From positions 31,433 through 95,432 of the forward strand of contig JASBRY010000007.1 of NCBI GenBank assembly GCA_030149165.1: a stretch of 64,000 nucleotides of DNA, given 5' to 3'. Shown here piece by piece: positions 13,750 through 63,878 of this stretch. The translations under genes and the position numbers were made by a program. The notes below the pieces were generated by a model that saw only the letters and a list, made by a program, of their open reading frames with translations, did no database searches and had not been told where the DNA came from. Every line of letters starts with the position of its first letter. Position 1 is the first letter of the stretch. Source of the stretch: Phycisphaerales bacterium (GTDB taxonomy: Bacteria; Planctomycetota; Phycisphaerae; Phycisphaerales; UBA1924).

Positions 13750-13800
13750 TTCTCCCAATCACCCCAAGAAACGCGTACCCTCAAGAAGAGGCATACTCAC

Positions 13801-25553: not shown

Positions 25554-25696
25554 ACCATCCGTCGAAATGATCCGTTTTTAGATGGATTTGGATCGATCGT
25601 CGCTTGACAGCATCACCAGATTCTGAGAGTATGGGGTTTCAGGCGACTCTCGTGCCGCCAGCTTATCGGTCTTTTTCGATCATACAGGAGATCACC

Positions 25697-43190: not shown

Positions 43191-43826
43191 TCACTCCCGC
43201 CGTCTTCTTCCCACGCTCATCGAAGCGATGCACAAGCAGCCCAGCCCACCCGGAGCCGGGACCGCTACGCCCGCGACATGCTGCGTGTAGAAGGTGAATG
43301 TGCTGCCCTCCTCGAAATACGCCTCAGCGATCCCGTCGGAGTCCTGGAAGTTCTCGTAGAACTCGATACGCATCGAATACTGCTCGTACCCAAAGTCGAT
43401 GGTATTGCCGAGTTCATCGAGCGGGATGATCCCATTGATCGTTTGGTTGTCTACCGGACTGGTGTACTCGGGGGCAAAGTTGAAGTCGACCTCGTCGCCA
43501 AGATTGATCGATGCATCCGCACCCCAGCTCGGCTCGATCGTCGTCAGCACAAGGTTGTACTCAAAGCTGAGCAGCGTGTTCGCGCTGGGATCAGGCGGGT
43601 TGCCCTTGGGGTCTTTGGGAATATGGAAGAGCGTAAGAAAGTCATTGTCCGGATCACCAAGCGCATCGATCATCCGGATCCCCGAAACATCGACCTCAGT
43701 GGACCAAATTCCAGACGCGAGCTGAACACTCGATACTCGCTCGAGCAGCTCGTCCGATTCAAACACTGATCCCGAAGCAAGTGCCGATGAGATCGCGAGT
43801 AAAGAAGCCGACAAAACAGATTTCAT
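43191..43826 (-). CDS. PEP-CTERM sorting-domain protein
   Basis: I placed the start at MKSVLSASLLAISSALASG, a signal peptide. The C-terminus is VPAPGGLGCLCIASMSVGRRRRE. The ORF is open in frame for a further 143 codons upstream, to 44255; see findings. Confidence 0.7.
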   Translation of the reverse strand: MKSVLSASLLAISSALASGSVFESDELLERVSSVQLASGIWSTEVDVSGIRMIDALGDPDNDFLTLFHIPKDPKGNPPDPSANTLLSFEYNLVLTTIEPSWGADASINLGDEVDFNFAPEYTSPVDNQTINGIIPLDELGNTIDFGYEQYSMRIEFYENFQDSDGIAEAYFEEGSTFTFYTQHVAGVAVPAPGGLGCLCIASMSVGRRRRE

Positions 43827-44351
43827 AATGATCGCCCCATGGTTTCCGTATATCGATGTAGAGACTATACAAGATTCATGGCAGGTCGTAAAGACAAAAA
43901 TATCAAGCGAGTGATCTGCACACACCCGCTCGTTCCTGAATGGCGGGAATCTATTTTCGCCTCCCATGCGCTTCGAGGTCCACCCCGACGGCCGCGTGAT
44001 CGTGCAGAATGTGCCGGTATCGGGAACGACCCCGATCATCTCGCTGAACACAGTGTCGTTTATTGTGGAGTGATTAATCGCGCCCGACCATCTGATGGCG
44101 ATTGAATCATCATCGAGTTCTGATATCAGATCATGCATCGAGGCCGCTCGTACAAGCACCAGTGTGTTCAGATTGTGCTTGAGTAAGATTGGGTACATCT
44201 TGGAGATCAACCACAAGGATTCGCTGGGGGGTATCGAAGCAATTAGCGATTCCAAGGCAAGGTGCTGGTCAGCTTAGTCTAATATTGCAAATAACTTTCT
44301 AATATTCAGCGAAGACATCTAGCTTTCGGTATCCGATCTTGTTTTAAGTTT

Positions 44352-45341
44352 CTACCATGGTAATCTGTTGCCATCCAAGTCATGTGAGAAAATATCATCA
44401 ATTTCGGAAGAGAGATGGCTTAGTGTATTTCTTTTATCGTTGAGATAATGCCAAAATACTGCCGCATCTCTCTCTGACATCTCGCCAGTTGTAAAATCAA
44501 GAAGCCTTTGGGTCGCATAGTCAAAGTCACTCAATTCGTGAACAAGTACTGTGCAGTTTTCTATGTTTAAAAATCTGGATGAGGCATGTTCTCGTATTTT
44601 TTCGCTAAGACTCTTCATTAATTCGAGGTGGATTCTCACATATTCAGTATTCTTGTTTCTTGTCCCCTCAGCAATCTTTGTGCAGAAGTACGATGTACAG
44701 TTGAACAGTGATAGCATTTTTGAGTCCTTGAATTTTTCTTTGTATTTGTAGTCGTCAGCCATTAGTTCTATACTCAATTTTTTGAGCAACGCTGTTAGTT
44801 CCTTTGACTGTATGCGTATTAGTTCTGGTACGGAAACATTTTCAAACACAACACCGTCCTTGTTTGTGATCATGATCGTCATCCCGTCGTTTGATATAGT
44901 GGGGCGTGAAATGTGACCTGCTGGTTTCGCATTTCCAGAGTTGTAATCTGATGGGTGCCCAATAGATCTATTTCGTAGATTTCTGATTCTATGTAATTTA
45001 GGGTGATCTGTTTCCCACTTGCCTTGAAAGAGTGGGTGTCCCAATGCGGTAGCTAGAGATTTGCATGCATCTTGCTGGACAAAGAGGGCTTGTAAAATGC
45101 CGTACAAATGTAGCAGTTGCCCCTGCCAAAGAGGCGGTTTGCTTCCGTTGAGGAACGAGTCTGCTACTCCGCATATGTCCTCAATTGCATCTAGTGCCGC
45201 GCAAATATGGAGCCAGCCTTCATGATTCGAGAGAAGTTTAGATTGCAGCGGATTCTCGTTGATTGAATCTCGGATGTGCTGTGCGGCATTGTACAGCGAT
45301 TGGATTTCATTTGAGATCTCAGATGTAGAATCTGCTACCAC
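44352..45341 (-). CDS. Orphan protein encoded on a low-GC island, with HEPN-like R-x5-H motif (function unknown)
   Basis: 329-codon ORF. Hand counts on four 60-nt lines gave 33-52 % GC, against 63 % for a 60-nt line (45361-45420) in the adjacent mutase gene. The GTG start at 45341 overlaps the mutase stop. The motif [14 protein letters not shown] lies at 44955..44975. Confidence 0.65.
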
Positions 45342-47254: not shown

Positions 47255-48595
47255 ATGCACGCAACCGCTTATTCCGCGTTGCTGCTCGCTGTCCTTTCAG
47301 GATCCGCCGCAGCGAACTCTGACCCCATCAAGCTCGATCCCACCGCCGCGAACATCCACCACGCCGGACACATCTACTTCAACATCGCAACCGGCGAAAA
47401 GATCACCACGATCATTGATACTGGGGATTTCCAATCACCAGCTGGTGCCACTGCTGGACGCGAAATCTGGATCGCCGACACCGGTGCTCAGTGTGCTGAC
47501 CAAGGGTTCTCGACTGAGTATTTCTTTGGTCTTGATGATCCATATCTTTCTTCTCCCAATACCTTGGGATCTGTGTGCTTTGACTGGGGTGATATCGCCC
47601 CAGACACGGTCGTCGATATGGTGCAGGTGCACTGGGTCTCGGATCATGCCGACACAGACACCGACTCCGACAGCATCGCCGACGGCATCGAAGGGTTCGC
47701 AGCTACATGGACATACTGGGATGCCATGAACGGGAGATCACCCCAGTTGGACTGTATTGCATTAACACTTATTCAGTTCCGACTAGAGAATCTGCCCGGT
47801 GAGTATCCAGAAGATACGGCAGCTTTGTCGATGTGGACCGCTGATATTGATCTTGGCGCATCGTTCGGCAGTTCCCTGACCTTTGAGATCGGTGACACAG
47901 ACTCTGACTTACAAGGCGCCAGTGTGCATAACCCTCGACTTGATCTCAATGACTTTGATTCAGATTCAATCAGTGATCTTGATCCAGACAATGATGGGCT
48001 CGCGGATTGGGGGTGGTCGATCCAGTTCATTCAACCAGGAGTTGTGGATCTTGACAACGCTGATGGTGATGATGACATCCATACGGGTCGTGATGGTGAT
48101 CTCGCCGCTCTTGCGACAGCGGGAATAGTCTTCGGATCACCGACTCCAGGACACGCGGAGTTGGACTCCGCCGGTGACTGGGTTTGGGTTGCTGACGGCC
48201 CAACTGCAGGTGTCACCGAAGACGCATTCGCTCTGGCTACCACTGATAACCCAGACGGCTCAGGTCCCATGACCATCGCAGGCACATTCTTCTTCGGAGG
48301 ACTCAACTGCGTTGCTGACCCCACCACAAGTCAATACACACCAGCCGCTCATTTCCAGGCTGTGCTCTATGGCGGGGAGTGCGTTTGCATCGTGGACTTC
48401 GCTGGTAACCCAGACGGAAGTCCCGACGGCCAACTCAACTTTCTCGACGTCTCAGCATTCTTAGCTGCGTTCGCACAACAAGACCCCGCCGCAGACTTCG
48501 CGGGAAATCCCGACGGCTCACCAGATGGTTTGTTCAACTTTGCAGATATCTCGAGTTATCTCGCCGAGTTCTCTGCAGGCTGTCCAGGGTGCTGA
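47255..48595 (+). CDS. Secreted Asp-rich protein, paralog A, with C-terminal dockerin-like module ending GCPGC
   Basis: An AGGAG lies 6 nt before the ATG at 47255. The signal peptide is MHATAYSALLLAVLSGSAAA. Conserved blocks are HHAGHIYFNIATGEK, VHWVSDHADTDTDSDSIADG and DNDGLADWGWSIQFIQPG. The tail is DFAGNPDGSPDGQLNFLDVSAFL...NFADISSYLAEFSAGCPGC. Confidence 0.85.
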   Translation: MHATAYSALLLAVLSGSAAANSDPIKLDPTAANIHHAGHIYFNIATGEKITTIIDTGDFQSPAGATAGREIWIADTGAQCADQGFSTEYFFGLDDPYLSSPNTLGSVCFDWGDIAPDTVVDMVQVHWVSDHADTDTDSDSIADGIEGFAATWTYWDAMNGRSPQLDCIALTLIQFRLENLPGEYPEDTAALSMWTADIDLGASFGSSLTFEIGDTDSDLQGASVHNPRLDLNDFDSDSISDLDPDNDGLADWGWSIQFIQPGVVDLDNADGDDDIHTGRDGDLAALATAGIVFGSPTPGHAELDSAGDWVWVADGPTAGVTEDAFALATTDNPDGSGPMTIAGTFFFGGLNCVADPTTSQYTPAAHFQAVLYGGECVCIVDFAGNPDGSPDGQLNFLDVSAFLAAFAQQDPAADFAGNPDGSPDGLFNFADISSYLAEFSAGCPGC

Positions 48596-48632
48596 ATCAG
48601 ACCCAATCGATTCCATATGAAAGGTCATTGAT

Positions 48633-49985
48633 ATGAATACCAGCAAAGTCATTCCGCTCGCTCTCGTTGCGTTAACCGGCTCCGTCGCCTCTGCAACAGA
48701 ACCCACCCAACTCGACCCCAAAGCTACCACCATCCGCCACGCCGGACACATCTACTACAACATCGCGACGGGTGAGAAGATCACTACGCTGATCGATTCT
48801 GGTGATCTGCAATCACCCGCCGATGCCACGCTTGGGCGCGAGATTTGGATCGCCGACACCGGGAACCCCTGCGCGGATCAAGGCTACTCATCAAGCTACT
48901 TCTACGCTCTAGATGATCCCGATGGGACCACCTCACTTTCTCTAAATGCCATCATGGTTGATTGGGGTGATATCCCGTTCAACACCGTTGTTGATTGTGT
49001 GCAAATCCATTGGGTGACTGATCACCAAGACACCGATACCGATTCAGACTCGCAACCTGACGGCGTATGGGGTCTGGGGGGCACATGGACCTATTGGGAT
49101 AGCTGTAACGGGAGATCTCCACTTGTCGAATGTGTGAGCATGCCGATTATCCAGTTCAAGTTCTCGTCATTGCTTGGCGAGTTCCCTTCTGATCCCAATA
49201 CGCTGACGAAATGGACCGCAGACATTGATCTTGCGATGGACTTTGCTTCATCGTTAACTTTTGAAATTGGAGACAATGACAGCGATCCACAGGGAGCCGC
49301 TGTATATAACCCGCGATCGGATCTCAACGATGCCGATTCAAACTCAGTCCCTGACATCGACATCGATCAAGACAACCTCGCAGACTGGTGTTGGTCAGTT
49401 CAGTTTGTCCAGCCGGGCACAATTGATCTTGATGATGCCGATGGGGATGATGATACATCGACCGGAATCGATGGTGACCCAACGGCGCTTGCAACAATTG
49501 GTATCGCATTTGGATCACCAACCCCAGGACATGCCGAGATCGATAGCATGGGAGATTGGCGTTGGATACCTGATAGTTTCACTGGTCCGACAGAAGATGC
49601 ATTCACTCTTGGGAGCACTCAAAATCCTGATGGATCAGGTGTGTTTATTCCCGCAGGCTCATTCGATTTCGGAGGTCTCAACTGCACCCCCGGACAGCCC
49701 GACGGCTACACACCAGCCGCCCACTTCCAAACAGTCCTTTACGGCCCATCAAGCCCGTGCGGGATCAGTTGCCCCTGGGATCTACCAAGCGAATCAAATC
49801 CAGGTGAATGCAACGGCGGGGATGGTCAACTGAACTTCATCGACATATCCAACTTCTTGTCGTTGTTCGCGGATGGAAACTTACTCGTGGACTTTGCCGG
49901 AAATCCAGACGGTTCGTCGGACGGCCAACTCAACTTCCTCGATGTCTCCGCATTCCTTTCAGGTTTCGCACAGGGATGCCCATAA
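48633..49985 (+). CDS. Secreted Asp-rich protein, paralog B, with C-terminal dockerin-like module ending GCP
   Basis: The signal peptide is MNTSKVIPLALVALTGSVASA. It has the same conserved blocks as paralog A (RHAGHIYYNIATGEK, IHWVTDHQDTDTDSDSQPDG). The tail ends ...NFLDVSAFLSGFAQGCP. Confidence 0.85.
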   Translation: MNTSKVIPLALVALTGSVASATEPTQLDPKATTIRHAGHIYYNIATGEKITTLIDSGDLQSPADATLGREIWIADTGNPCADQGYSSSYFYALDDPDGTTSLSLNAIMVDWGDIPFNTVVDCVQIHWVTDHQDTDTDSDSQPDGVWGLGGTWTYWDSCNGRSPLVECVSMPIIQFKFSSLLGEFPSDPNTLTKWTADIDLAMDFASSLTFEIGDNDSDPQGAAVYNPRSDLNDADSNSVPDIDIDQDNLADWCWSVQFVQPGTIDLDDADGDDDTSTGIDGDPTALATIGIAFGSPTPGHAEIDSMGDWRWIPDSFTGPTEDAFTLGSTQNPDGSGVFIPAGSFDFGGLNCTPGQPDGYTPAAHFQTVLYGPSSPCGISCPWDLPSESNPGECNGGDGQLNFIDISNFLSLFADGNLLVDFAGNPDGSSDGQLNFLDVSAFLSGFAQGCP

Positions 49986-50001
49986 ATAGAAGGTACATAC
50001 C

Positions 50002-51348
50002 ATGCATTACACCCATTCATTCAGTTCCCTACTTCTCGTTGCCTGCGCTGGTTCAATCTCGCACGCGAGCTATCCGATCCAACTCGAACCCACCGCCGCG
50101 AACATCCGCCACGCCGGACATATCTACTTTAACATTGCGACGGGCGAGAAGGTCACTACGCTGATCGACGCAGGTGATCGGCAAGACGCGGTCTCATTGC
50201 AACCCGGCTCGGAGATATGGATCGCCGACACAGGCGCTCAATGTGCTGACCAAGGATTCTCGACTGAGTTTTTCTTTGGTCTTGATGACGCTGATGCAAC
50301 GACTCCTACTTCGTTGTCGCTGAATGCAATGTGCCTCGACTGGGGCGACATTGCCCCAGACACAGTCGTTGATATGGTGCAGGTCCATTGGGTCTCGGAT
50401 CATGCCGACACAGACACCGATTCCGACAGCATCGCCGACGGCATCGAAGGTTTCGCAGCAAACTGGATTTACTGGGATGCCATGAACGGCAGATCGCCAC
50501 AACTGGACTGCACCGCTCTGCCGATCATCCTGTTCCAGTTGGAAAGTCTTCCAGGTGAGTATCCGGAAGACACCGCAACGCTCGCTTTCTGGACCGCAGA
50601 TATAGATCTCGGCGCCTCTTTCGGGACATCACTCACCTTCGAGATCGGTGATACAGATTCTGACAAGCAAGGCGCGAGTGTTCATAATCCAAGACTTGAC
50701 CTTCAAGACAACGATTCGGATTCGATACCTGACATCGACCACGACAATGACGGCTTAGCAGATTGGGGGTGGTCGATCCAGTTCATCCAGCCAGGAACAG
50801 TGGATCTCGACAACGCCGATAGTGACGACGACATCCTGACCGGCATTGATGGTGATCCCGCTGCACTTGCGACAGCCGGGATCGTATTCGGATCACCCAC
50901 ACCAGGTCACGCAGAGATGGACACCGCCGGGAACTGGGAATGGGTATCGGATGGTCCAACCGCTGGTGTAACCGAAGATGCATTCGCCTTAGCGAGTACA
51001 ACAAACCCTGACGGCTCGGGTCTCATGACCATCGCAGGTACCTTCTTCTTCGGAGGTCTCGAGTGTGTTGCTGATCCAACATTTGGTCAGTACACACCTG
51101 CCGCTCACTTCCAAGCCATTCTTTATGGTGTCGGAAGTGTGGCTTGCCCATGGGATATTGCCGGGAATCCGGATGGAACCCCAGACGGCTCGCTGAACTT
51201 CCTCGATGTCTCGGCGTACTTAAGTTTGTTCAGTCAGGGTGAACCATGCACTGATCTCGCTGGCAATCCCGATGGGACTCCAGACGGACAGCTCAACTTC
51301 ATCGATCTCTCTGCATTCTTGGCAGGATTCGCAGCTGGTTGCCCTTGA
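50002..51348 (+). CDS. Secreted Asp-rich protein, paralog C, with C-terminal dockerin-like module ending GCP
   Basis: The signal peptide is MHYTHSFSSLLLVACAGSISHA. It is closest to paralog A, with long near-identical nucleotide stretches. The tail ends ...NFIDLSAFLAGFAAGCP. Confidence 0.85.
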   Translation: MHYTHSFSSLLLVACAGSISHASYPIQLEPTAANIRHAGHIYFNIATGEKVTTLIDAGDRQDAVSLQPGSEIWIADTGAQCADQGFSTEFFFGLDDADATTPTSLSLNAMCLDWGDIAPDTVVDMVQVHWVSDHADTDTDSDSIADGIEGFAANWIYWDAMNGRSPQLDCTALPIILFQLESLPGEYPEDTATLAFWTADIDLGASFGTSLTFEIGDTDSDKQGASVHNPRLDLQDNDSDSIPDIDHDNDGLADWGWSIQFIQPGTVDLDNADSDDDILTGIDGDPAALATAGIVFGSPTPGHAEMDTAGNWEWVSDGPTAGVTEDAFALASTTNPDGSGLMTIAGTFFFGGLECVADPTFGQYTPAAHFQAILYGVGSVACPWDIAGNPDGTPDGSLNFLDVSAYLSLFSQGEPCTDLAGNPDGTPDGQLNFIDLSAFLAGFAAGCP

Positions 51349-51544
51349 TTTTGAGCAGGAAATGGATCTTTCTGGGTCTTTTGTACTATGCCCTAGGTCC
51401 TCTCCGCTAAGCAACCAAAAGAACACTCTGTTTTGATCCCAAACGCTCAATGGGTGCTTGTGCGCGTGTGCATACGGACTTACTTTCTGCGTAGTGAGCA
51501 ATGAATGCTCACATCATTCTGACAACAGTATTTTGAGGGTCATC

Positions 51545-52783
51545 ATGACAACGCAACTGATCATCACACTGATCGCATCATCTGGAATCGCTTTAGCAGC
51601 AAACACACCTACCTCAATCGAGTATGAGAGAGCTCAGCTCCACCACGCCGGACACTTGTACTTCAACATCGCGACCGGCGAGCGCCTCCTCACCCCGATC
51701 GATACCGCGGATGTACAAGCCGCCGCGTCGGGAGACGCAGAACCGATCTGGGTGGTCAGTGGTCCAGCAAACGGATGCGATGCCGCAGGCTCATCAAATA
51801 CTTACTTTGTGCTCGATACCGATTCAGGGTTTTCGTCCGGTTCAGTCAGTCCCGCATTGTTTGATTGGGGAGATATCCCATCGGACACCGTTGTGGATTG
51901 TGTGCAGATTCACTGGATCACTGATCATGCGGACACCGATACGAACTCCGATGGATTCGCAGACGCAAGCATCGGTTTCGGAGCAACCTGGACCTTTTGG
52001 GATGGTTTGAATGGCCGAGCGCCACAACTCTTCTCGACCGCACTCCCGCTCGTCGAACTCACATTCACACTCCCAGGCGAATATCCCAGCGATACCGCGA
52101 CCGTCGCGTATTACACTGCAGACATCGACCTTGCTGGATCCTTCGGATCGCCTGCAAACTTCGAGATTGGTGACACCGATTCAGATCCACAAGGCGCGGC
52201 CCTGTTCAATCCACGCATGGATTTGCAAGACAATGATTTCGATGGCATACCAGATCTGGACATCGACCAAGATGGACTCGCCGATTGGGGATGGTCAATC
52301 GACTTCCATCAACCTGGTACATACGACCTCGATAACGCCGACGGCGATTCGGATCCGATGACTGGAGTTGATGGAGATCTGAATGACTTTGCTCAAGCGG
52401 GTCTTGCGTTTGGGCTCCCCCAGCCCGGACAAGCCGTGTTCGATCCAGACTCCGGGACATGGTCGTGGGTAACAGAGCCAGGAGCAGCGAATGTGGAAGA
52501 TGCATTCGGATTGCTGTTGCCAAACTTTGGAGACCCGTTCTATGACGGCCCATTCTGGATTGGAGGATTCAACTGCGATCCGTACCAACCATTCGCGGCT
52601 TTCCAGATGATCCTCTATCAACAAATGAACGGATGCAGCGCCGATGTCAACGACGACGGAGATCTGAACTTCCTCGATGTCTCATTCTTCATCAGCAAGC
52701 AGATCGACTACAACGAGGACATGTCGTTCAACTTCCTCGATGTTTCGGAGTTTCTCGCAGATTTCGCGATAGGCTGCCCGTAA
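51545..52783 (+). CDS. Secreted Asp-rich protein, paralog D (most divergent), with C-terminal dockerin-like module ending GCP
   Basis: The ATG at 51545 follows GAGGG. The signal peptide is MTTQLIITLIASSGIALA. Conserved blocks are HHAGHLYFNIATGER, IHWITDHADTDTNSDGFAD and DQDGLADWGWSIDFHQPG. The tail is CSADVNDDGDLNFLDVSFF...NFLDVSEFLADFAIGCP. Confidence 0.82.
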   Translation: MTTQLIITLIASSGIALAANTPTSIEYERAQLHHAGHLYFNIATGERLLTPIDTADVQAAASGDAEPIWVVSGPANGCDAAGSSNTYFVLDTDSGFSSGSVSPALFDWGDIPSDTVVDCVQIHWITDHADTDTNSDGFADASIGFGATWTFWDGLNGRAPQLFSTALPLVELTFTLPGEYPSDTATVAYYTADIDLAGSFGSPANFEIGDTDSDPQGAALFNPRMDLQDNDFDGIPDLDIDQDGLADWGWSIDFHQPGTYDLDNADGDSDPMTGVDGDLNDFAQAGLAFGLPQPGQAVFDPDSGTWSWVTEPGAANVEDAFGLLLPNFGDPFYDGPFWIGGFNCDPYQPFAAFQMILYQQMNGCSADVNDDGDLNFLDVSFFISKQIDYNEDMSFNFLDVSEFLADFAIGCP

Positions 52784-52811
52784 AGGAACAGGAACAGTGT
52801 GGTTTGGAAAC

Positions 52812-52834
52812 GAGGCCGTCCATAGGGCGGCCTC
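52812..52834 (+). terminator. Weak terminator-like hairpin after the paralog array
   Basis: A 7-bp stem (gaggccg / cggcctc) with a 9-nt loop. It is followed only by TT, so it is a poor U-tract. Confidence 0.3.
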
Positions 52835-53026
52835 TTCCATGCGCCAAGAAGCGGCACTTCGTCAACAATTTGGTATACAAGCCATCTAGTAAATGTGGTC
52901 CAAACTGCGGGTTGAATTCGTCCTCGACTTGGAATAGAATGATCTGTCTAGTGGTTCGCATAGGGTAGTGTGGTGCGGTTTCGTCAACCATAAACTGCAT
53001 AGCTACGAATGAGAAGGAGTCACGCG

Positions 53027-55073: not shown

Positions 55074-55901
55074 TTAAGCCCCGATGTCGATGCGTTCAAG
55101 CGAGTCCGCTGGAACCCATCCGTTCTGTGTATTGCGTAGCTCGATGCGGACCCAGCCTCCCTTCGTCTCACGCACAACGCCCTCCGTCCCAATCCCCAAC
55201 GAGCCGCTGTATACTTCGGAATACACACCGCTGCCAGGTCCAGAGAACATCTCTGTTCCAGGCATAACGACGACTATCCCATCGCGATCCATGCCATTGG
55301 AGTAGTCGAACCAGAGCAGCCCAATCCCTGCGATCCCAAGCAGCACGCAAACCAAAGCACTTCGAATCAGTTTCAATCGTGTGCTGCTGAGGACAGACGC
55401 GGTGATGAACACACTCGCTATGCCGAGCAGCGCGATCGATCCATACCAGATCATCCATCGATCTATAAAGCCTCGCCATATAAGCAACGCCTGCTTCCAA
55501 TCCCATCCCGACTCCTGCTGCGGAACAGTTGGTTCTACGAACGACCGTGCGTGCTCAAGATTCTCCCGCATCGCCACATCCGTAGGATCAATCGCAAGCC
55601 CCCTCCGATAGTGCAGGATCGATCTCCCGAGATCATTCGCGATGAAGTACGCGTTCCCAAGAGCGAACTCACCCGCTGAGGATTCAATTTCTTCTTGCTC
55701 CATGACGAATGCAAGCTCCGCCGCCGCTTCCTGGATCAACTGTGTTCGGCTCTCAGATTCAGTTGATTGGATCGCATGATCAATCGCCGCAATCGCATCC
55801 TCAAGCGATGCACTGCCCTCTTGCGCCCAAACACACTGAGCAAAGACTCCAAGCACAAGAACCACAATCGACAATCGACATGTATTGAAAAAGTGGTTCA
55901 T
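55074..55901 (-). CDS. batE: BatE-like protein (TPR, TM helices, C-terminal SH3-like domain)
   Basis: It is the last gene of the Bat operon. It has a signal peptide, TPR-like AYFIANDLGRSILHYRRGLAIDP, and a C-terminal GWVRIELRNTQNGWVPADSL. Confidence 0.7.
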   Translation of the reverse strand: MNHFFNTCRLSIVVLVLGVFAQCVWAQEGSASLEDAIAAIDHAIQSTESESRTQLIQEAAAELAFVMEQEEIESSAGEFALGNAYFIANDLGRSILHYRRGLAIDPTDVAMRENLEHARSFVEPTVPQQESGWDWKQALLIWRGFIDRWMIWYGSIALLGIASVFITASVLSSTRLKLIRSALVCVLLGIAGIGLLWFDYSNGMDRDGIVVVMPGTEMFSGPGSGVYSEVYSGSLGIGTEGVVRETKGGWVRIELRNTQNGWVPADSLERIDIGA

Positions 55902-57688
55902 GCCAGCACCCTCCGCTTTGTCGAGGTCGTTCGAGTCAGCCCGCGTTTGCGAACATCGTGCCGAATCGCACGAAGGAGTGAGCCGTCCGCTTGTTGCTCG
56001 TCGGATCGTCCGTATTGATTCCCTTCATTTCCTCCAAGCACGACCGTCGATCGTTCGATCAACTCATTGGAGATACCCAGGCGATTCAAATCAGCACCGC
56101 TGATCGAATCAGGTTCAACACCAAGCAACGCGCCCGCATACACACGGATCGCCTGCACATCGTCGCCCTTGGAATGGAGCTTGGATGCTTGTTTCCACGC
56201 TCGATGTACGGCAGCTGCTTTCGGATCAGTATGCCGAATGAAGCCTACATATCCCATCGCCAAACAAGGAAGTGCGACGATCAATCCGAAAGCTCCCTGC
56301 CAGATCGGTTCACGGACGACACTCTGGAATGAGAATGAGCGAGGACCATTGCGGATCGCGTCAGCATCCGGATGCGACCAGAACCGTGATGCCCCAAGTT
56401 CCAGCGTTCCACGATTCGCAGTAGGGGAAGTTTCTGTTTGCACACTCGAAACCACGGCATCATCGAGCGTCACTGATCGAACCGCCCGCACACTGATCGG
56501 GATCGGGTCAGACTCAAACACCTCGAACGAACCCGTCTCAGGATTAAACGCCGGGAGTGTGATCCCTGGGATCTGCTTGACAGAATCATCGAGTGCGCGG
56601 ATCGTCGTTGAAAACAATCGCTCGCCGCTCCGCCGTCGTTCCATTTCTTTCCATCCTTCAGGTGAAACACGGAATCCTTCTGATGCCAGTGACTGCACAT
56701 TTAGAGTCTGTTCCAGTCCAAGCATGGGCTCTGTCCCCGCGACCAGCACACGGATGTCAATCGGATCGCCCACATTCACCTGTGTATTGGATGCATCGGA
56801 GAGCACTTGGTAGGTCCCGATCATGCCGTGGTATCCTGCAGGCATGCCCGCAGTTGGGACATCAATCACACGGACCGTACGAGGCTCAGACTCCGCATAC
56901 ATCCGCATCGATCGCGAAAATCCGTCCTGTCTTGTGAAGACGACCCGGACCGGACCAATATCAAACGAGCCTTCTTGTGTGGCGGTGATCACCAAGTCGA
57001 ATCGCAAGCGTTTCATGCGCGTGCCTTGGTACAGACTGTCATCGAGGTACGAAACAATGTTCTCACCAAGCAACGAGATCGAGTGTTCCTGACCATTCAT
57101 TCCGCTGGGAGTCTTGGGGACCACACGCATCGAATCCGGGAAGACCGAGCTGTTAAAGTTCGTCCCTGAAGTCTGATCACCGATCCACCAGCTGACTCGA
57201 GCAACCACAGACTCACCAACATAAATTGGGCGATCCGGAAGCTCAATCTCAACAATATCTTTATCAGAACTCTGGGGCAGCAATCCCACCATCCGTGCGG
57301 AGTTCGAATGATACCGCTGCCCGTTGACCTGAAGCACAGCCGCCGGAATCGAAATGTCTCCTTCAGAAATCACCATGACCTGATACTGGTGCTTGTAATA
57401 CGAATCTGTGTACGCTCGTTGTCTTCCGTTGACCGACCGCATCGTGGTGAACTTCTGTGATGAAGCGCCCAGATACTCTGCACGCACATTGGATGGGAAG
57501 TCCACTTCAGGAGGTGTCGCGTCATCAGCGCCACGAACCAGGACCTGGTAAGTGACAACATCGCCCACATACGCGCGTTGCCGGGAGAGCTCCGCTTCGA
57601 GCGTGATGCCGCTTCCTGTTTGCGCTCTCGCGATCGTCACCAAACTCAAGATGATCATAAGCGCACTCATGAGTTGTTTAAACATCAC
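55898..57688 (-). CDS. batD: BatD-like oxygen-tolerance protein
   Basis: 596 aa with signal peptide MMFKQLMSALMIILSLVTIARAQ, beta-rich repeats and one C-terminal TM segment. It overlaps both neighbours by 4 nt. Confidence 0.75.
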   Translation of the reverse strand: MMFKQLMSALMIILSLVTIARAQTGSGITLEAELSRQRAYVGDVVTYQVLVRGADDATPPEVDFPSNVRAEYLGASSQKFTTMRSVNGRQRAYTDSYYKHQYQVMVISEGDISIPAAVLQVNGQRYHSNSARMVGLLPQSSDKDIVEIELPDRPIYVGESVVARVSWWIGDQTSGTNFNSSVFPDSMRVVPKTPSGMNGQEHSISLLGENIVSYLDDSLYQGTRMKRLRFDLVITATQEGSFDIGPVRVVFTRQDGFSRSMRMYAESEPRTVRVIDVPTAGMPAGYHGMIGTYQVLSDASNTQVNVGDPIDIRVLVAGTEPMLGLEQTLNVQSLASEGFRVSPEGWKEMERRRSGERLFSTTIRALDDSVKQIPGITLPAFNPETGSFEVFESDPIPISVRAVRSVTLDDAVVSSVQTETSPTANRGTLELGASRFWSHPDADAIRNGPRSFSFQSVVREPIWQGAFGLIVALPCLAMGYVGFIRHTDPKAAAVHRAWKQASKLHSKGDDVQAIRVYAGALLGVEPDSISGADLNRLGISNELIERSTVVLGGNEGNQYGRSDEQQADGSLLRAIRHDVRKRGLTRTTSTKRRVLA

Positions 57689-58779
57689 CAGTCCTCCTTG
57701 ACTTGAACAGGACGCCCTGTCGCGCGATACACCTGTCGGCGTTCCCGCTCGTCGCGTTCCTTATCAAGCAACTGCTGAGCAAGCTCATCGATGGGTTCCC
57801 CATCCTCGCCGACCTGTTCGCTCGGTTGTCCCGGCTGCTCGCCTTGCTGCTGCTCCGACTCCTGCTCTTGCTCAGACTCCCGCATCCGCTGAGCCGCCCG
57901 CTCCAGCGCATCCGCGGCTTCCTGCTGCTTCTCAGCAGCCGTCTCGTTGTCCCCGCGCTCGATCGCTTCCTGCGCCTGTTGCTGCGCTTCTATCGCGTCT
58001 TGCAGATCCTGCTCAGTCTGCTCATCACCCTGCTGTTGTTCTTCGAGCTGTTGGTTTGCTTGTTGTGTCTGATCTGACAACTTTTCTTGCTGCTCGGCGC
58101 GTTCCTGCTGATTCGGCTGCTGGGATTGCGAAGCCGACTCACTCTCCTGACCCTGCTCTCGTTGCTGATCTGCGAGGTCCTGGAGCTGATCGGACATACT
58201 CTGAGATTCGCCGCCCTGTTCCCCGTTTTCACCTTGTTGCTGTTGCTGCTCTTGCTGTTGTTGTTCGATCTGCTCTTTCAAGTCCTCAAGCTGCTGTATC
58301 TGCTTTCTGGTGCGCTCAACATTGCGTTTGGACTCTTGATGTTCTGGATCAGCACGCGAAGCATTTAAGAACGCACGCTCGACAGCTTTCAACTGACTAA
58401 TCATTTTGCCGATCTGTTCCGGATCCATCATGAGTTGGCCGCTCGCATCAACACCACGATTCAGCGCATGCCCAAGGTTAAACATCGCATCCCGGCGTTG
58501 TTCTTGAGTGGTCGCAAATCGTCCAGCTAATCGGAGCGACTCCGCCGCGAACGACAGATCGGGTTCGTTGCCCCGCATCGCGAGCACACCGCGATTGAGC
58601 GCCGCGACATAGCGAGCGGAATCATCATCAGAGAGATCCAGCACCTCGCTGTACAACTCCATCGCGTACACAGTGTCGTCCTCCTGAACATGCAGCGCCG
58701 TCTGCAGGTGCACCATCGGATCGATCTCCTGCGCGTGCAAGACGCTGACAAACATCAGGATCACTACGAGCATCTTCAT
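57685..58779 (-). CDS. batC: BatC-like TPR protein with long Gln/Glu-rich acidic region
   Basis: It has a signal peptide, an N-terminal TPR-like part, then about 190 aa of Q/E-rich low complexity. Confidence 0.7.
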   Translation of the reverse strand: MKMLVVILMFVSVLHAQEIDPMVHLQTALHVQEDDTVYAMELYSEVLDLSDDDSARYVAALNRGVLAMRGNEPDLSFAAESLRLAGRFATTQEQRRDAMFNLGHALNRGVDASGQLMMDPEQIGKMISQLKAVERAFLNASRADPEHQESKRNVERTRKQIQQLEDLKEQIEQQQQEQQQQQGENGEQGGESQSMSDQLQDLADQQREQGQESESASQSQQPNQQERAEQQEKLSDQTQQANQQLEEQQQGDEQTEQDLQDAIEAQQQAQEAIERGDNETAAEKQQEAADALERAAQRMRESEQEQESEQQQGEQPGQPSEQVGEDGEPIDELAQQLLDKERDERERRQVYRATGRPVQVKEDW

Positions 58780-59837
58780 GATACGACCTCCTTGCGCAAC
58801 CCAAATCCCGCGAGCATCATCTCAAGACAGATCAACACCAAACCCGGCGCGAGCGCAATCGCATACCGCTCATCCCATCTCGTCACCGTGGCGCTCCCGA
58901 TGTTCGCTTGATCTCCGCGAGCGATGAGGTCTTGATACACCTGCGCCAGATCAATATCGCCCGTCCCGATCTCCAGATACGCGCCGCCGGGTGTCGCTGT
59001 TGCGATCTTCGAAAGTGTCCCAGAATCGAGCCGGGACTGCACAAACTCACCGCCCTGACGGACAGGACGATTGTCCTCGTCAAGCACACGAGCCCCACCC
59101 TCTGAACCAATCCCCAGCGCCAAGATCCGAATCCCGGCCGCACCCGCCGCGGTCGCCGCTTCAACCGGAAGTGATTCCTGATCCTCGCCATCAGTAATCA
59201 GGATGATGTCGCGATGCGATGCACTGTCCGAATCTTCGAGATCATAAAAAACCATGTCCATACATCGGCGGATCGCATCCCCGATATTCGTGCCGCCCAT
59301 ATCCACCGACTTAGTTGACAACTCATCGAGTGCCAGATCGAAGAACAATCGGTCGGTTGTCAAAGGCGATTGCACCGAAGACGATCCCGCAAAGGCAACC
59401 AGACCAATGCGATCGGTCTCAAGTTCCGCAACCAGATCCGTGATCCAGAGCTTGGCGCGTTCGAGCCGATTCGGCGCCACATCTCTTGCAAGCATCGAAC
59501 GGGACACATCGACAAGGAACACAATGTCGCGTCCCTTTGCTTCCGTGGTCTCCTGATGCGGATTAGCGCGTGGACGCATTGTTGCGCCCACAATCAATGC
59601 CAATCCAAGCACCATCGCGACAGCCCGTACTCCAACGATCAAACTCCTTCGGCGTCCAAACAACATTGGGAGACGATCGCTGTCCGCGAACTTGCGTGCT
59701 ACTTTCACGCGATATCGCGCGGCAAAGATACCGACTACCGCCAACGCAATCACGCCCCAGAGCGCCATCGCCCATCGCCAATCCGCGAACTCAAACTCCT
59801 CACCCAAAAACGAAGGCATCAAGCTTGCAATACCCAT
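58776..59837 (-). CDS. batB: BatB-like von Willebrand factor A domain membrane protein
   Basis: A GGGGAGG RBS is present. The ATG at 59837 shares one nt with the batA stop. The MIDAS motif is LVDVSRSM. There are TM helices at both ends. Confidence 0.85.
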   Translation of the reverse strand: MGIASLMPSFLGEEFEFADWRWAMALWGVIALAVVGIFAARYRVKVARKFADSDRLPMLFGRRRSLIVGVRAVAMVLGLALIVGATMRPRANPHQETTEAKGRDIVFLVDVSRSMLARDVAPNRLERAKLWITDLVAELETDRIGLVAFAGSSSVQSPLTTDRLFFDLALDELSTKSVDMGGTNIGDAIRRCMDMVFYDLEDSDSASHRDIILITDGEDQESLPVEAATAAGAAGIRILALGIGSEGGARVLDEDNRPVRQGGEFVQSRLDSGTLSKIATATPGGAYLEIGTGDIDLAQVYQDLIARGDQANIGSATVTRWDERYAIALAPGLVLICLEMMLAGFGLRKEVVS

Positions 59838-60883
59838 CACGCGACCTCCCCAGCGATCCCGATCCGTGATACATATCCACCAAACACCAGGATCAAACAT
59901 GCAACCGCGAAGGGGTGATACAACTCCTCATACCGCGTCGTCTCGGATATCTGCACTTCTGTGCGTTCGAGTTCATCAATTGTCGCGTACACATCCGCGA
60001 GATCATCAAGCGAACTCACACCCCAGAACCCGCCTCCTGTGTGTTCAGCGACGGCAGTCATCCGCCGTTCATTGACTTCTTGTCCCATTCCCAATGCCAG
60101 CCCACCGAACTGGTTCCGCACACCGCCACGGATCCCGATGATGTAGATCTTGATTCCCCATTCCGCCGCGAGCCGTGCCGCTTGGTCCGGAGAGTAATCC
60201 CCGGCTCGATTCTCGCCGTCAGTCAGCAGGATGATCGCTTTGCTTTTGATCTCAAATTCTGGATCTTCCAGATCTGCTTTCATTGAATCTTCAGATGCTT
60301 TGAGTCGAGCGCACGCGAGCACCAACGCATCACCGATCGCAGTCGACCGCTCGCTTTCCACACGCGGGATCTCGACTCGCCGGATCGCATCAACGAGCAC
60401 ATCATGCGACTGTGTCAACGGCATCATCGTGTCGGCATAAGTCCCGAACACCACAAGACCGAGCAGATCACCCGCACGCCCCTTGAGTTCTTCCCCGTTC
60501 CCCACCACAAACTGTTCAACCACTTTCTTCACCGCGACCAATCGGGTTGTCCGTGATCCCTCGAACTCGGCCGGCTCTTTCATCGAACCCGATCGATCAA
60601 CGACCAGTTCAATCGCGATCGCATCCTGCTGACTCTTGCGATCCGTGATCGCTTCACGCGGCCGCGCGAGTGCAACAAGCCCCGCAACCAACCCAAGCGA
60701 GAGCAGCAGGGGGGCGATCCAGCGCACGCGCGTGCGAATACTCATCCCCGCCGCAGCGATGCGCGTAGGCACAGACGATTCCACGCCCCTCCTCCGTCGA
60801 TCCCCGAGCACACGGACCACCCAGATGATCGGTACGATCAACGCAAACCAAAGCACCCAAGGATATGCGAACTCCGCATTCAT
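59837..60883 (-). CDS. batA: BatA-like von Willebrand factor A domain membrane protein
   Basis: The N-terminus is MNAEFAYPWVLWFALIVPIIWV. The MIDAS motif is VVDRSGSM. There is an ATGA overlap with the upstream gene. Confidence 0.85.
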   Translation of the reverse strand: MNAEFAYPWVLWFALIVPIIWVVRVLGDRRRRGVESSVPTRIAAAGMSIRTRVRWIAPLLLSLGLVAGLVALARPREAITDRKSQQDAIAIELVVDRSGSMKEPAEFEGSRTTRLVAVKKVVEQFVVGNGEELKGRAGDLLGLVVFGTYADTMMPLTQSHDVLVDAIRRVEIPRVESERSTAIGDALVLACARLKASEDSMKADLEDPEFEIKSKAIILLTDGENRAGDYSPDQAARLAAEWGIKIYIIGIRGGVRNQFGGLALGMGQEVNERRMTAVAEHTGGGFWGVSSLDDLADVYATIDELERTEVQISETTRYEELYHPFAVACLILVFGGYVSRIGIAGEVA

Positions 60884-61746
60884 CCAGCCACCCCGCAAAT
60901 CTCCACCGCGCGTCGAGCCGCATCCCGCACGGCTGCTGTGTCAATCTGTTCACCGCAGAACCGCGCCGACTCCACCTCGCGAGCGATCACCCCGAGCCCA
61001 GCATACTGCCCCTTCAACTCGATCAGTGCTCGATGCAATGAGCCAATGTCTTCATCATTCAGCCGCTCTGCGTGTGCCGCGATCATCAATACCGAAGCCG
61101 GATCAATTCCATCCGCTTCATCATCATGTATTCGGCGGATATACCACACCGCCAAACCCCCGATGACAACAAACGCCCCCGCAATAATCGCGATGATGCC
61201 AGCATGATCATCTGTAGTCTGTTCTTGAGGCATCCCCGCAAGCAGCACTTCCCCCTCAAGCTCAGTTCCATCATCTTCGCTGAGCACAGAATCAACGCGA
61301 ACTTCAATAGGCGCGAGCCGCGCGATGCGCTTTCCGATCTCCGCTGTCCCAGCGCGAATTCCAAACCCATCCACCAAGTACTCGCCCCCAAGGAATGGTG
61401 AAGAGACAAAGACATCCTCACGCACAAAGCGTTCGCCATCAAAGGTTACCGCCCCTTTCCGCTCAGATTCAAGCGTCCACCCCAGCTTCTCCCAGTTTGG
61501 TTGCATCAACTCGACACGAACCCCATCATCCCACTGAAGCAAGGCACGGATCGTCAGAGTTTCCGTAAGCTCTATCGAATCCTGATCGAGCATCACCATC
61601 AGCTCCGCTCCAGTGCGAGGTTCGACAATCGTCGACTCCAATGCAGACTCCTGGACACCACCCTCAGGACTCGTCCCTCCGCATCCGCTGAGCAGCAATG
61701 CGAGCAGCATTCCACTCGCGATCAGGATTCGCACCGCACTCATCAT
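60880..61746 (-). CDS. Lipoprotein-like membrane protein of the Bat operon, function unknown
   Basis: The lipobox is LLLSGCGG. There is an internal TM segment (IIAIIAGAFVVIGGLAVWYI). It has ATGA overlaps on both sides. Confidence 0.65.
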   Translation of the reverse strand: MMSAVRILIASGMLLALLLSGCGGTSPEGGVQESALESTIVEPRTGAELMVMLDQDSIELTETLTIRALLQWDDGVRVELMQPNWEKLGWTLESERKGAVTFDGERFVREDVFVSSPFLGGEYLVDGFGIRAGTAEIGKRIARLAPIEVRVDSVLSEDDGTELEGEVLLAGMPQEQTTDDHAGIIAIIAGAFVVIGGLAVWYIRRIHDDEADGIDPASVLMIAAHAERLNDEDIGSLHRALIELKGQYAGLGVIAREVESARFCGEQIDTAAVRDAARRAVEICGVAG

Positions 61747-62654
61747 CTCCGCATACCTCGCTGATGGAAGTAGCGGATCAACTCATCCGCGTAATCATGA
61801 CCAGTCGAGAGCTCGATGTGATCGATCTGCGCGTTCTTCAGCGTCGAAACAATCATTTCATTTTCCGCGATCGCACGCTCCCGATACCGAGTGCGTACTT
61901 TCTTCGATCCAGTATCGACGAGGAACCGCTTGCCGCTCACAGGATCATGCATGCGGATCATGCCCGCGCGTGGGAGCTCGAACTCGCGGGGATCGGTGAA
62001 CTGCATCGCGATGACCTCGTGCTTGCGAGCAAGCATCCGCATCTCGCGCCCCCAGCGTGGTTCGCCTTCGTTGTTCATGCCCGACAAAAAATCCGACATC
62101 ACGATCACGATGCATCGCCGTTTGTGCGTGCGTCCGATCTCCATGAGCACAGTTGACAGATCTTCTTGGTTGTTCCCCGGAGATGCGTCTATCAGCTCAC
62201 GGATGATCCGCATCCCATGGAGCCGCCCCTTTGTCGCTGGGACATGCAATGTCTTCCCATCTTCCAGATGGTCCGAACCAAACAAGCACAAACCCACCTT
62301 GTCGTTGTTCCGGCCCGCCGCGAGCGTGAGCACAGCGCCCACCTCACTCATAAGCTCATGCTTTGAACGCCGTATTGTCCCAAACGCTGTGGACCTCGAG
62401 CAGTCCACCGCGAGCACCACGGTCAGCTGTCTTTCCTCTTCAAACCGCTTGATAAACGGCCGCCCCATTCTCGCCGTCACATTCCAATCAATCGAACGGA
62501 CATCATCCCCTGGCTGATATTCTCGCACTTCAGAGAACTCGATCCCCTGCCCTTTGAACGCCGAGTGATAACTCCCACCGAACAGGTCATCCACCCGTCG
62601 CCGTGCACGGATTTCAAGCCGCTTAACCGCCTGCATGAGCTCTTCAGTAATCAT
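61743..62654 (-). CDS. DUF58 domain protein (MoxR-associated VWA-like)
   Basis: FKGQGIEFSEVREYQPGDDVRSIDWNVTAR is the hallmark DUF58 block. Confidence 0.9.
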   Translation of the reverse strand: MITEELMQAVKRLEIRARRRVDDLFGGSYHSAFKGQGIEFSEVREYQPGDDVRSIDWNVTARMGRPFIKRFEEERQLTVVLAVDCSRSTAFGTIRRSKHELMSEVGAVLTLAAGRNNDKVGLCLFGSDHLEDGKTLHVPATKGRLHGMRIIRELIDASPGNNQEDLSTVLMEIGRTHKRRCIVIVMSDFLSGMNNEGEPRWGREMRMLARKHEVIAMQFTDPREFELPRAGMIRMHDPVSGKRFLVDTGSKKVRTRYRERAIAENEMIVSTLKNAQIDHIELSTGHDYADELIRYFHQRGMRR

Positions 62655-62685
62655 GCGTGCAATGCCCTCACTGAATCGTGACTAC

Positions 62686-63729
62686 TCAAGGAATCGGTAT
62701 CCGATCGAACACTTCCTGCACCAGATCTTCGCTCGTGATCCCCTCTGCTTCCGCTTCATACGAGATCATCACACGATGACGCAGGACTTCCATCCCGATC
62801 ATCTTCACATCGCTCGGCGTGACAAAGCCGCGCCCCTCAAGGAACGCATTAGCGCGAGCAGCGCGAGCAAGCGAGAGCGAAGCGCGAGGTGAAGCACCAA
62901 ACTCGATAAGCTTCTCCATATCCATCTTCCAAGGCACCCCAGCCGCGGAAGGATCACGCGTCGATTGAACAATCGAGACGATGTAGTTCTTGAGTTTCTC
63001 ATCAATGTAAATCGAATCGACCGTCTTCCGAGCAGCGCCCACCTGCTCAAGCGACATCATCGAGGAGACTTCTGGGATCTCCAGTGTGCTCATCATCCGA
63101 TCAACGATCAACCGCTCCTCGTCTTTCGTTGGATACCCAACCTTGATCTTGAGCATGAACCGGTCAACCTGTGCTTCTGGAAGCGGATAGGTCCCTTCCT
63201 GCTCGATCGGATTCTGTGTTGCGAGCACAAGGAACGGCTCGCCCTCACCCGTGAGCGGATAGGTCTCGCCTCCGATCGTTGCATGCCGTTCCTGCATCGC
63301 TTCGAGCAGTGCCGACTGCACCTTCGCCGGAGCGCGGTTGATCTCATCAGCGAGCACGATGTTCGCGAAGATCGGACCCTTGCGAGCCGTGAAGCTCGAC
63401 TCTTTGGGGTTGTAGATCTCGGTACCAATCAAGTCCGCCGGGAGCAGATCAGGCGTGAACTGGATGCGTGCAAACTCCGCTTCCAGCGCCTGCGCGAGCG
63501 TGGTCACTGTCAGCGTCTTTGCGAGACCAGGCACACCCTCAAGCAGGACATGCCCGCCAGTCAGCAACCCGATCACCAATGAGCGGATCATCTGCTCCTG
63601 ACCAACAACCACAGTCCCGACCGCTTGGATCAGCTCATTGATCGGCTGCGCCTGCGACGCGATCAACTCATTACTCGGTGCCTCTGAAATCGATACGCCC
63701 AAAGCGACCTCCTTAATGCCTTTCAGCAT
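62686..63729 (-). CDS. moxR: MoxR-family AAA+ ATPase
   Basis: Walker A is LLEGVPGLAKT and Walker B is VLADEINRA. GASPRASL is also present. The start is uncertain: ATG 63729 or ATG 63783; the track start 63798 is GTG. Confidence 0.92.
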   Translation of the reverse strand: MLKGIKEVALGVSISEAPSNELIASQAQPINELIQAVGTVVVGQEQMIRSLVIGLLTGGHVLLEGVPGLAKTLTVTTLAQALEAEFARIQFTPDLLPADLIGTEIYNPKESSFTARKGPIFANIVLADEINRAPAKVQSALLEAMQERHATIGGETYPLTGEGEPFLVLATQNPIEQEGTYPLPEAQVDRFMLKIKVGYPTKDEERLIVDRMMSTLEIPEVSSMMSLEQVGAARKTVDSIYIDEKLKNYIVSIVQSTRDPSAAGVPWKMDMEKLIEFGASPRASLSLARAARANAFLEGRGFVTPSDVKMIGMEVLRHRVMISYEAEAEGITSEDLVQEVFDRIPIP

Positions 63730-63878
63730 CCATCTGATGCCATCGGTCCACGACTTCAACTCTACAGAAAAAACAGTGTCCATGCATGAACAGGCCACTG
63801 TGGTTTCTACAACACAAAGATGTCAAAGTTCAGCGATCCGGTCACGAAAATGCAAGATTTTTGACCAGAAACGAGGGC

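Follow-up and report, generated by a model that had tools for sequence, protein, structure and literature searches.

The 64,000-nucleotide window analyzed here, from the assembly of a marine Phycisphaerales bacterium (GCA_030149165.1, contig JASBRY010000007.1, positions 31,433 to 95,432 of the forward strand; coordinates below are those of the window), carries four consecutive plus-strand genes, paralogs A to D. Their products are members of a Phycisphaerales-specific family of secreted proteins with an undescribed all-beta core and a tail of a known anchoring type. An initial annotation, made from the nucleotide sequence alone, had described four same-strand genes of 412–450 codons separated by 37, 16 and 196 nt, and the open reading frame (ORF) list and the alignment of the four proteins match this description exactly. 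The four genes are as follows:

47255-48595, + strand: paralog A, 446 amino acids (aa); signal peptide, acidic core predicted as all-beta, GC-type dockerin tail ending in GCPGC
48633-49985, + strand: paralog B, 450 aa; the most divergent within the A–C group
50002-51348, + strand: paralog C, 448 aa; the reference for modelling
51545-52783, + strand: paralog D, 412 aa; of the old orthologous type that comes last in the arrays, its tail shortened

The start codons of A–D are those that fit the paralog alignment. Each is preceded by a Shine-Dalgarno-like sequence: AGGAG at −11 to −7 of the ATG of A, and GAAAGG, GAAGG and GAGGG ahead of the starts of B, C and D, respectively. The public gene call of A probably begins 13 codons further 5′, as judged from the 459-aa protein P0008, which lies on the 107-kb NCBI contig that also carries the exact sequence of B; the exact sequence of C is likewise in the NCBI collection. 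All four reading frames are intact. Promoter and terminator scans of the array returned no signal exceeding the shuffled background. When aligned end to end, B, C and D are 60, 77 and 52% identical to A, respectively, and pairwise identities among the array paralogs range from 52 to 77%. Mean column identity is 72%, with 140 or more invariant columns; at these levels of identity and invariance the four genes are real paralogs and chance resemblance is excluded.

Each protein begins with a signal peptide, composed of a hydrophobic N-terminus followed by small-x-small sites, and in the AlphaFold2 model of C a low-confidence helix was placed at residues 8–20 of this region. The mature proteins are strongly acidic (net charge about −60, Asp 12.5–13.3%, Lys 0.2–1.1%), compared with an Asp content of 4–9% for other genes in the window. 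The description of the array as secreted, Asp-rich paralogs is well founded. The shared motifs that the initial annotation had listed were likewise all recovered by regular expression at equivalent positions, in A–D or in A–C as it had stated. One detail needed correction: the HAGH motif, proposed as the mature N-terminus, is present but starts about 13 residues past the likely cleavage site. Two conserved segments were located by regular expression at the following positions:

50107-50151, + strand: N-terminal family signature of C, RHAGHIYFNIATGEK
47357-47401, + strand: equivalent signature in A
48735-48779, + strand: equivalent signature in B
51641-51685, + strand: equivalent signature in D
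50386-50856, + strand: Asp-rich segment of C, with the conserved acidic loops HWVSDHADTDTDSD, FEIGDTDSDKQGA, DLQDNDSDSIPDIDHDNDGLADWGWS and DLDNADSDDDILTGIDGD
47630-48100, + strand: equivalent Asp-rich segment in A
49008-49478, + strand: equivalent Asp-rich segment in B
51911-52378, + strand: equivalent Asp-rich segment in D

The core between signal peptide and tail is about 340 residues long and was predicted by AlphaFold2 to be all-beta. Pfam searches of A–D with a threshold as permissive as E ≤ 1 gave no match of any kind, and NCBIfam searches at the same threshold matched only the tail. In 45 aligned relatives, Pfam returned weak EF-hand and dockerin matches alone, none of them outside the tail, and in ten distant relatives it returned nothing informative. 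Sequence-profile searches of the PDB found no match to the core. A single-sequence PDB search with the tail gave only low-complexity matches to designed repeat proteins, which were rejected as spurious.

Structural models of the core were then compared with known folds. The AlphaFold2 model of C, built on the 45-sequence alignment (predicted local distance difference test score, pLDDT, 79.9; predicted template modelling score, pTM, 0.75), contains about 17 beta strands over residues 35–376 and two long acidic loop regions. A compact distant relative of 359 aa (P0162) was predicted to have a similar all-beta core (AlphaFold, pTM 0.72). Foldseek searches found nothing at E ≤ 1e-3, either for the C model against the PDB and BFVD or for the P0162 model against the PDB. 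The partial match of best probability was to the MAM domain of meprin-beta (4gwn; probability 0.92, 160 columns, root-mean-square deviation 5.3), followed by the lectin-like domain of Cwp84 (4ci7; 0.89), the ligand-binding domain of EphA2 (0.60) and the carbohydrate-binding modules (CBMs) CBM27 and CBM4. Since the Pfam, NCBIfam, PDB sequence and Foldseek searches gave no family, the initial view that the core could not be assigned still stands. The core belongs to no described family and is the new part of the finding, and its family has a defined taxonomic range and genomic organization; the model hints at a decorated jelly-roll sandwich.

The MAM, Eph, Cwp84 lectin-like and CBM4/22/27 modules resemble the array core in being extracellular all-beta sandwiches, with Foldseek probabilities of 0.6–0.92, and Ca2+ dependence is common among jelly-roll binding modules. 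However, the array core is about twice the size of such a module, carries long acidic insertions and has no sequence-profile relationship to any of them. A second resemblance is to thrombospondin type 3 and other DxDxDG repeats, as the array proteins contain D-x-D-x-D-G-x-x-D runs such as DIDHDNDGLADW. The 'thrombospondin-type-3-like' loops of the initial annotation hold at the level of the motif but not as membership of the Pfam family (TSP_3, PF02412), which had no match at E ≤ 1 in A–D or the 45 relatives. Furthermore, the loops in the model are set between strands of the beta-sandwich and do not form a repeat wire.

Across the 45 relatives, invariant and near-invariant columns are mostly Asp, Gly, Trp, Pro and Cys, and the Asp, Gly and Trp of the Asp-rich segment make up the bulk of the invariant columns. 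The conserved motifs are Y-x-N-x-x-T-G-E, D-W-G-D-I...V-V-D, H-W...D-T-D-T-D-S-D and F-E-I-G-D-x-D-S-D, together with D-x-D-x-D-G-L-A-D-W-G-W-S, D-L-D-N-A-D and F-G-G-x-x-C. Each core has seven to eight D-x-[DN]-x-[DN] motifs, in addition to the two loops of the tail. In distant relatives of 340–390 aa the long acidic inserts are shortened, but TGE, WGD, LGD, DxDGDGxxDF, FGGxxC and GCP are kept, and even these proteins retain the Y-x-N-x-x-T-G-E of the N-terminal signature. The His residues of the HAGH motif are missing from some distant members, and the distant relatives share no conserved group of His, Glu, Arg, Lys or Tyr residues of the kind used in catalysis.

The C-terminal tails of A, B and C belong to the NCBIfam family NF041540, 'GC-type dockerin domain-anchored protein', and cover the full model (positions 1–67) with scores above its curated cut-off of 29 bits. 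The tails lie at these positions:

48386-48583, + strand: tail of A, NF041540 at 57.7 bits, residues 378–443
49770-49979, + strand: tail of B, NF041540 at 45.7 bits, residues 380–449
51145-51342, + strand: tail of C, NF041540 at 59.4 bits, residues 382–447
52634-52780, + strand: tail of D, divergent and shortened, residues 364–412, placed by alignment

All four proteins end in GCP at the extreme C-terminus (GCPGC in A), as had been noticed from the sequence, although this dockerin-like tail was already catalogued as NF041540 and D fits the family poorly. The tail of D alone scored 16.6 bits (E = 0.0075), below the cut-off, and the whole D protein gave no match. Judged from the alignment, in which the relationship is clear, the D tail is a divergent, shortened variant homologous to the tails of A–C. 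In C, two repeats of an Asp-rich loop and a helix are bracketed by Cys382 and the terminal Cys447, both invariant across the 45 relatives; AlphaFold2 predicted the helices at residues 400–411 and 433–445, with an Asp-rich loop before each.

This arrangement recalls the type I dockerin (PF00404), which also has two Asp-rich loop and helix repeats. The tails of A–C have longer loops, which contain a GNPDGSPDG insert, and neither the Cys bracket nor the final GCP is typical of the classical dockerin. PF00404 gave no match at E ≤ 1 in A–D and matched only one of the 45 relatives (E = 0.044), and solved dockerins matched weakly, and only to the profile of distant relatives (2y3n_B, E = 0.006; 5lxv_B, E = 0.04). 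No cohesin partner was found in the window. With the NF041540 class itself there are several points of agreement: A–C and an S8 protease encoded in the window score above its cut-off, its tail ends in G-C-P at the C-terminus, and relatives of the array proteins carry its name in NCBI. However, the class is defined by the tail alone and is silent on the 340-residue core of the array proteins, and the tail of D falls below its cut-off.

An exhaustive profile search recovered 4152 representative proteins at E ≤ 1e-3, ranging from 66 to 985 aa. Most of them match through the tail alone, and the tail is thus a modular appendage that is widely attached to extracellular proteins of this lineage. Its bearers in the present and in related genomes include an S8 protease, a protease of the trypsin-like type, an endonuclease I protein and an FG-GAP protein; a conserved protein of about 745 aa carries it in related genomes. 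A module for display or anchoring would be expected to spread in this way over exoenzymes and many other proteins. The tail and its naming class are already known, and the array proteins themselves are already public.

A word-indexed search found 158 relatives of the array proteins, nearly all of them 410–480 aa long and without Pfam annotation; the shorter ones are from short contigs and are apparently fragmentary. Their NCBI names are 'hypothetical' or 'GC-type dockerin domain-anchored protein [Phycisphaerales bacterium]'. In a locus scan limited to one genome per species, all 63 loci belonged to Phycisphaerales, Phycisphaeraceae, Planctomycetota or unclassified uncultured-bacterium metagenome-assembled genomes (MAGs). 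The closest relatives are in WUAJ01 (87%), OZ252285.1 (84%) and OZ246976.1 (80%). The copy number of the array among related genomes was compared, as the initial annotation had suggested: after re-annotation, the loci hold tandem arrays of one to five copies, and a typical genome has one array and one singleton. The array adjoins a methylmalonyl-CoA mutase gene in 24 loci, and the singleton adjoins carA, priA and a MATE transporter gene in 23–29 loci. In OZ246976.1 the syntenic array comprises five genes (450, 449, 461, 448 and 411 aa) between the mutase gene and a metallo-beta-lactamase (MBL)-rhodanese gene. The four-gene array of the window is without the 461-aa 'position 3' type of these close relatives.

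A partner gene was sought by clustering all ORFs of 64 loci, following the suggestion of a conserved co-occurring gene, and only housekeeping neighbours were recovered; the conserved ones are methylmalonyl-CoA mutase, carA, priA, the MATE transporter, murD, HtrA and panB. No polysaccharide utilization locus (PUL)-like, transporter-type or metal-transport context was found at the loci, and no receptor or processing enzyme in the window. The proposal that the array is the best candidate in the window for an undescribed system is not upheld by these results: housekeeping genes flank both of the conserved sites, and the window encodes neither a cohesin nor a receptor or a processing enzyme.

The initial annotation had also placed the array next to a low-GC island. 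The low-GC gene in question (44352-45341, GC 0.42) is parted from the array by the methylmalonyl-CoA mutase gene. Membership of the island was rejected on the conserved synteny with the mutase gene, and the conservation of this neighbour in 24 loci indicates that the array is native backbone. As for the island, positions 43191-45341 (− strand) hold two ORFs of 354 and 329 aa without a Pfam match, the second with a GC content of 0.42 and a GC content at third codon positions (GC3) of 0.42, compared with window values of about 0.56 and 0.65. The counterpart region in OZ246976.1 holds different genes, so that 43191-45341 is a variable insert, located upstream of the mutase gene and probably acquired by horizontal transfer.

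In a neighbour-joining tree, D clusters with the last array gene of the relatives and therefore belongs to an orthologous type of old origin. The group of A and C also takes in the singleton and the genes at positions 1 and 4 in the relatives, and B is isolated. The tree and the alignment agree with the earlier assessment that A and C form the closest pair and that D has diverged furthest. Synonymous divergence (dS) between the window paralogs is saturated or above 1.9 by the Nei-Gojobori method, with ratios of nonsynonymous to synonymous divergence (dN/dS) of 0.06–0.13 for paralog pairs and 0.08–0.15 for ortholog pairs. The only young pair consists of positions 1 and 4 in OZ246976.1 (L001 9854-11350 and 14147-15523; dS 0.30, dN/dS 0.21), and at 91% identity and this low dS it represents a recent duplication or gene conversion. 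With dS saturated and dN/dS between 0.06 and 0.21, duplications in the array have been repeated but mostly ancient, and all copies are functional, under purifying selection. The initial annotation was thus right about repeated duplication, but ongoing diversification is not evident at the level of whole genes, and the single recent event lies in a relative. The idea of rapidly diversifying adhesins was rejected at the whole-gene level on the same dN/dS range.

As a proxy for expression, codon usage was compared across the window. The array genes have an effective number of codons (Nc) of 50–59 and a GC3 of 0.54–0.575 and show less bias than any other native gene of the window, whereas housekeeping genes have an Nc of 40–47 and a GC3 of about 0.67–0.77. 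With such weak codon bias, very high expression of the array is unlikely.

In the reading that we prefer, A–D would be exported through the Sec pathway and the core would fold into a jelly-roll-like beta-sandwich stabilized by Ca2+ in the four conserved Asp-rich loops, with a Cys81–Cys355 disulfide that probably helps to stabilize it. The Ca2+-dependent dockerin tail would dock each protein to a putative cell-surface receptor encoded away from the array. The core would then bind without catalysis, in the manner of a lectin, a CBM or a MAM domain, and the conserved, anciently diverged paralogs would supply a limited and fixed set of specificities, with algal or particle-associated polymers as plausible ligands. 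We assign a probability of about 0.5 to this chain as a whole. A non-catalytic binding role is supported by the high-probability Foldseek neighbours, which are binding jelly-rolls only, and by the lack of a conserved catalytic set. The retention of the locus positions in 24–29 loci and of the D-type orthologs also argues for this reading.

Several observations weigh against it. The structural matches are all weak (E ≥ 2.7e-3, TM-score ≤ 0.37, identity about 10%), and for this reason the jelly-roll binding modules are taken as a hint of fold class and not as a family relationship. No cohesin was found by a Pfam scan of the approximately 40 larger ORFs of the window. The weak codon bias (Nc 50–59) suggests modest expression. 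Neither the phrase 'GC-type dockerin' nor experimental work on this tail was found in the library of papers searched, and the anchoring of this dockerin to a cell-surface partner is presumed.

A non-cellulosomal cohesin/dockerin surface complex, the 'planctosome', has been hypothesized for freshwater Phycisphaerae (PMC6461901), and it shares with our proposal the display of exoenzymes and binding proteins on the planctomycete surface. A more ambitious version of the preferred reading would make the core a new Ca2+-dependent beta-sandwich fold and the main non-enzymatic cargo of a Phycisphaerales-wide, 'planctosome'-like dockerin display, in which the 2–6 paralog types per genome would serve as an adhesin or lectin repertoire that fixes attachment to algal polymers or particles. 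This extended version seems doubtful to us.

The acidity of A–D could also point to a structural role, in which the proteins would self-assemble into a Ca2+-bridged lattice, an S-layer-like surface coat fixed to the envelope by the tail. Many S-layer proteins are acidic, rich in Ca loops and poor in Lys, and A–D are extremely acidic, Ca-loop-rich and nearly Lys-free. Many Phycisphaerales MAGs encode relatives of them, often with two loci in one genome, at conserved core-genome positions, and viral jelly-roll capsid proteins, which tile surfaces, have the best Foldseek E-values, though at low probability. However, dominant envelope proteins usually show strong codon bias, and the array has the weakest bias and the lowest GC3 among the native genes of the window (Nc 50–59 against 40–47). 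The S-layer idea, already raised in the initial annotation, thus gains no support from codon usage. In addition, several paralog types are conserved separately, in place of one dominant gene, and Pfam found no SLH or other S-layer domain in A–D or the 45 relatives. Taken together, a coat of this kind appears unlikely.

The company that the tail keeps could instead suggest that the core has extracellular enzyme activity of a new, Ca2+-dependent kind, such as that of a polysaccharide lyase or hydrolase with a jelly-roll fold, since other tail bearers are exoenzymes (the S8 protease, the trypsin-like protease and endonuclease I). Several marine polysaccharide lyase and glycoside hydrolase families have jelly-roll folds, and tandem paralogs are frequent among carbohydrate-active enzymes. 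Yet no enzyme was matched by Pfam or NCBIfam even at E ≤ 1 in 45 members, no lyase or hydrolase jelly-rolls were among the high-probability Foldseek matches (GH12 entries reached probabilities of only 0.01–0.02), the residues conserved in distant relatives are of the Ca-ligand or structural type, and the loci are without PUL-like or transporter neighbours. An enzymatic core is, in our estimation, quite unlikely. If charge alone were at stake, the proteins might act mainly as a polyanionic cation sink that sequesters or buffers Ca2+, Mg2+ or trace metals on the cell and binds no particular macromolecule, as the net charge of about −60, the Asp content of about 13%, the number of D-x-[DN]-x-[DN] motifs per core and the two loops of the tail would allow. 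But an ordered and conserved fold, many invariant Trp, Gly and Pro residues and old paralog types exceed what charge storage needs, and the loci show no metal-transport context, which makes this role very improbable. Finally, the weak codon bias and the promoter and terminator scans, which did not rise above background, might be read as signs of a decaying, non-functional duplication remnant or of an annotation artefact. The four intact frames with Shine-Dalgarno-like sites speak against such a reading, and it is already effectively refuted by the dN/dS of 0.06–0.21 in paralog and ortholog pairs and by the orthologs in dozens of genomes.

Bacteria of the marine Phycisphaerales occur widely, in association with particles and algae; to our knowledge, almost no members have been cultured or studied biochemically. 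A lineage-specific secreted family here recurs at conserved genomic sites under purifying selection, and proteases and nucleases bear its tail as well. Knowing what the core binds, and to which receptor the GC-type dockerin docks, would reveal how these bacteria organize their surface and attach to substrates, and would put a name to a domain that is now annotated through its tail alone. The advance would be incremental, a new domain family within a recognized class of anchored proteins and not a new kind of multi-gene system.

Among the other bearers of the tail is a protease encoded 18 kb upstream of the array:

25604-29215, + strand: protein of 1203 aa with a Peptidase_S8 domain (PF00082, E = 1.9e-39) and the same tail at about 29036-29212

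Its tail scored 34.9 bits against NF041540 over residues 1149–1202, above the 29-bit cut-off, and was also matched by the tail hidden Markov model (HMM), in accordance with the earlier remark that the array and this protease have a tail in common. The protease is presumed to be a separate cargo that shares the same display route. Its Peptidase_S8 domain occupies residues 303–598 and is followed by about 550 residues without a family match before the GC-type dockerin; a stretch of the protein weakly resembles the MXYO-CTERM-anchored family NF045522 (E = 0.002).

Two further groups of proteins related to the tail were observed at the loci. In close relatives, the array is followed directly, in convergent orientation, by the gene for the protein of about 745 aa (L001 17086-19326, − strand; also in L002, L008, L013, L015 and L022). 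The protein has a signal peptide, Cys-rich repeats and a GC-type dockerin (41.4 bits), has no Pfam match and is unrelated to the core. This gene is cleanly absent from the window, where only 226 nt (52784-53008) lie between D and the MBL-rhodanese gene, and a tblastn search gave matches to tails alone elsewhere. About 7–8 kb downstream of family loci in several genomes are genes for proteins of about 375 aa (L019 17950-19062, L037 17924-19057 and L044 19381-20505), those of L019 and L037 accompanying two-copy arrays. These proteins contain many EF-hand motifs and match the tail HMM, and they could be true multi-dockerin or EF-hand proteins, or the tail model could be cross-hitting them.

Elsewhere in the window, adjacent Peptidase_M50 and rhomboid protease genes (12700-14709, + strand) each encode a C-terminal DUF6576, an unusual pairing of one domain with two unrelated intramembrane proteases. 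Downstream of the rhodanese genes, positions 55074-63798 (− strand) hold a cluster resembling a BatA-D/MoxR 'aerotolerance' operon, with genes for TPR, BatD, DUF4175-like and two VWA proteins, a 288-aa ORF without a Pfam match and a MoxR AAA_3 ATPase.

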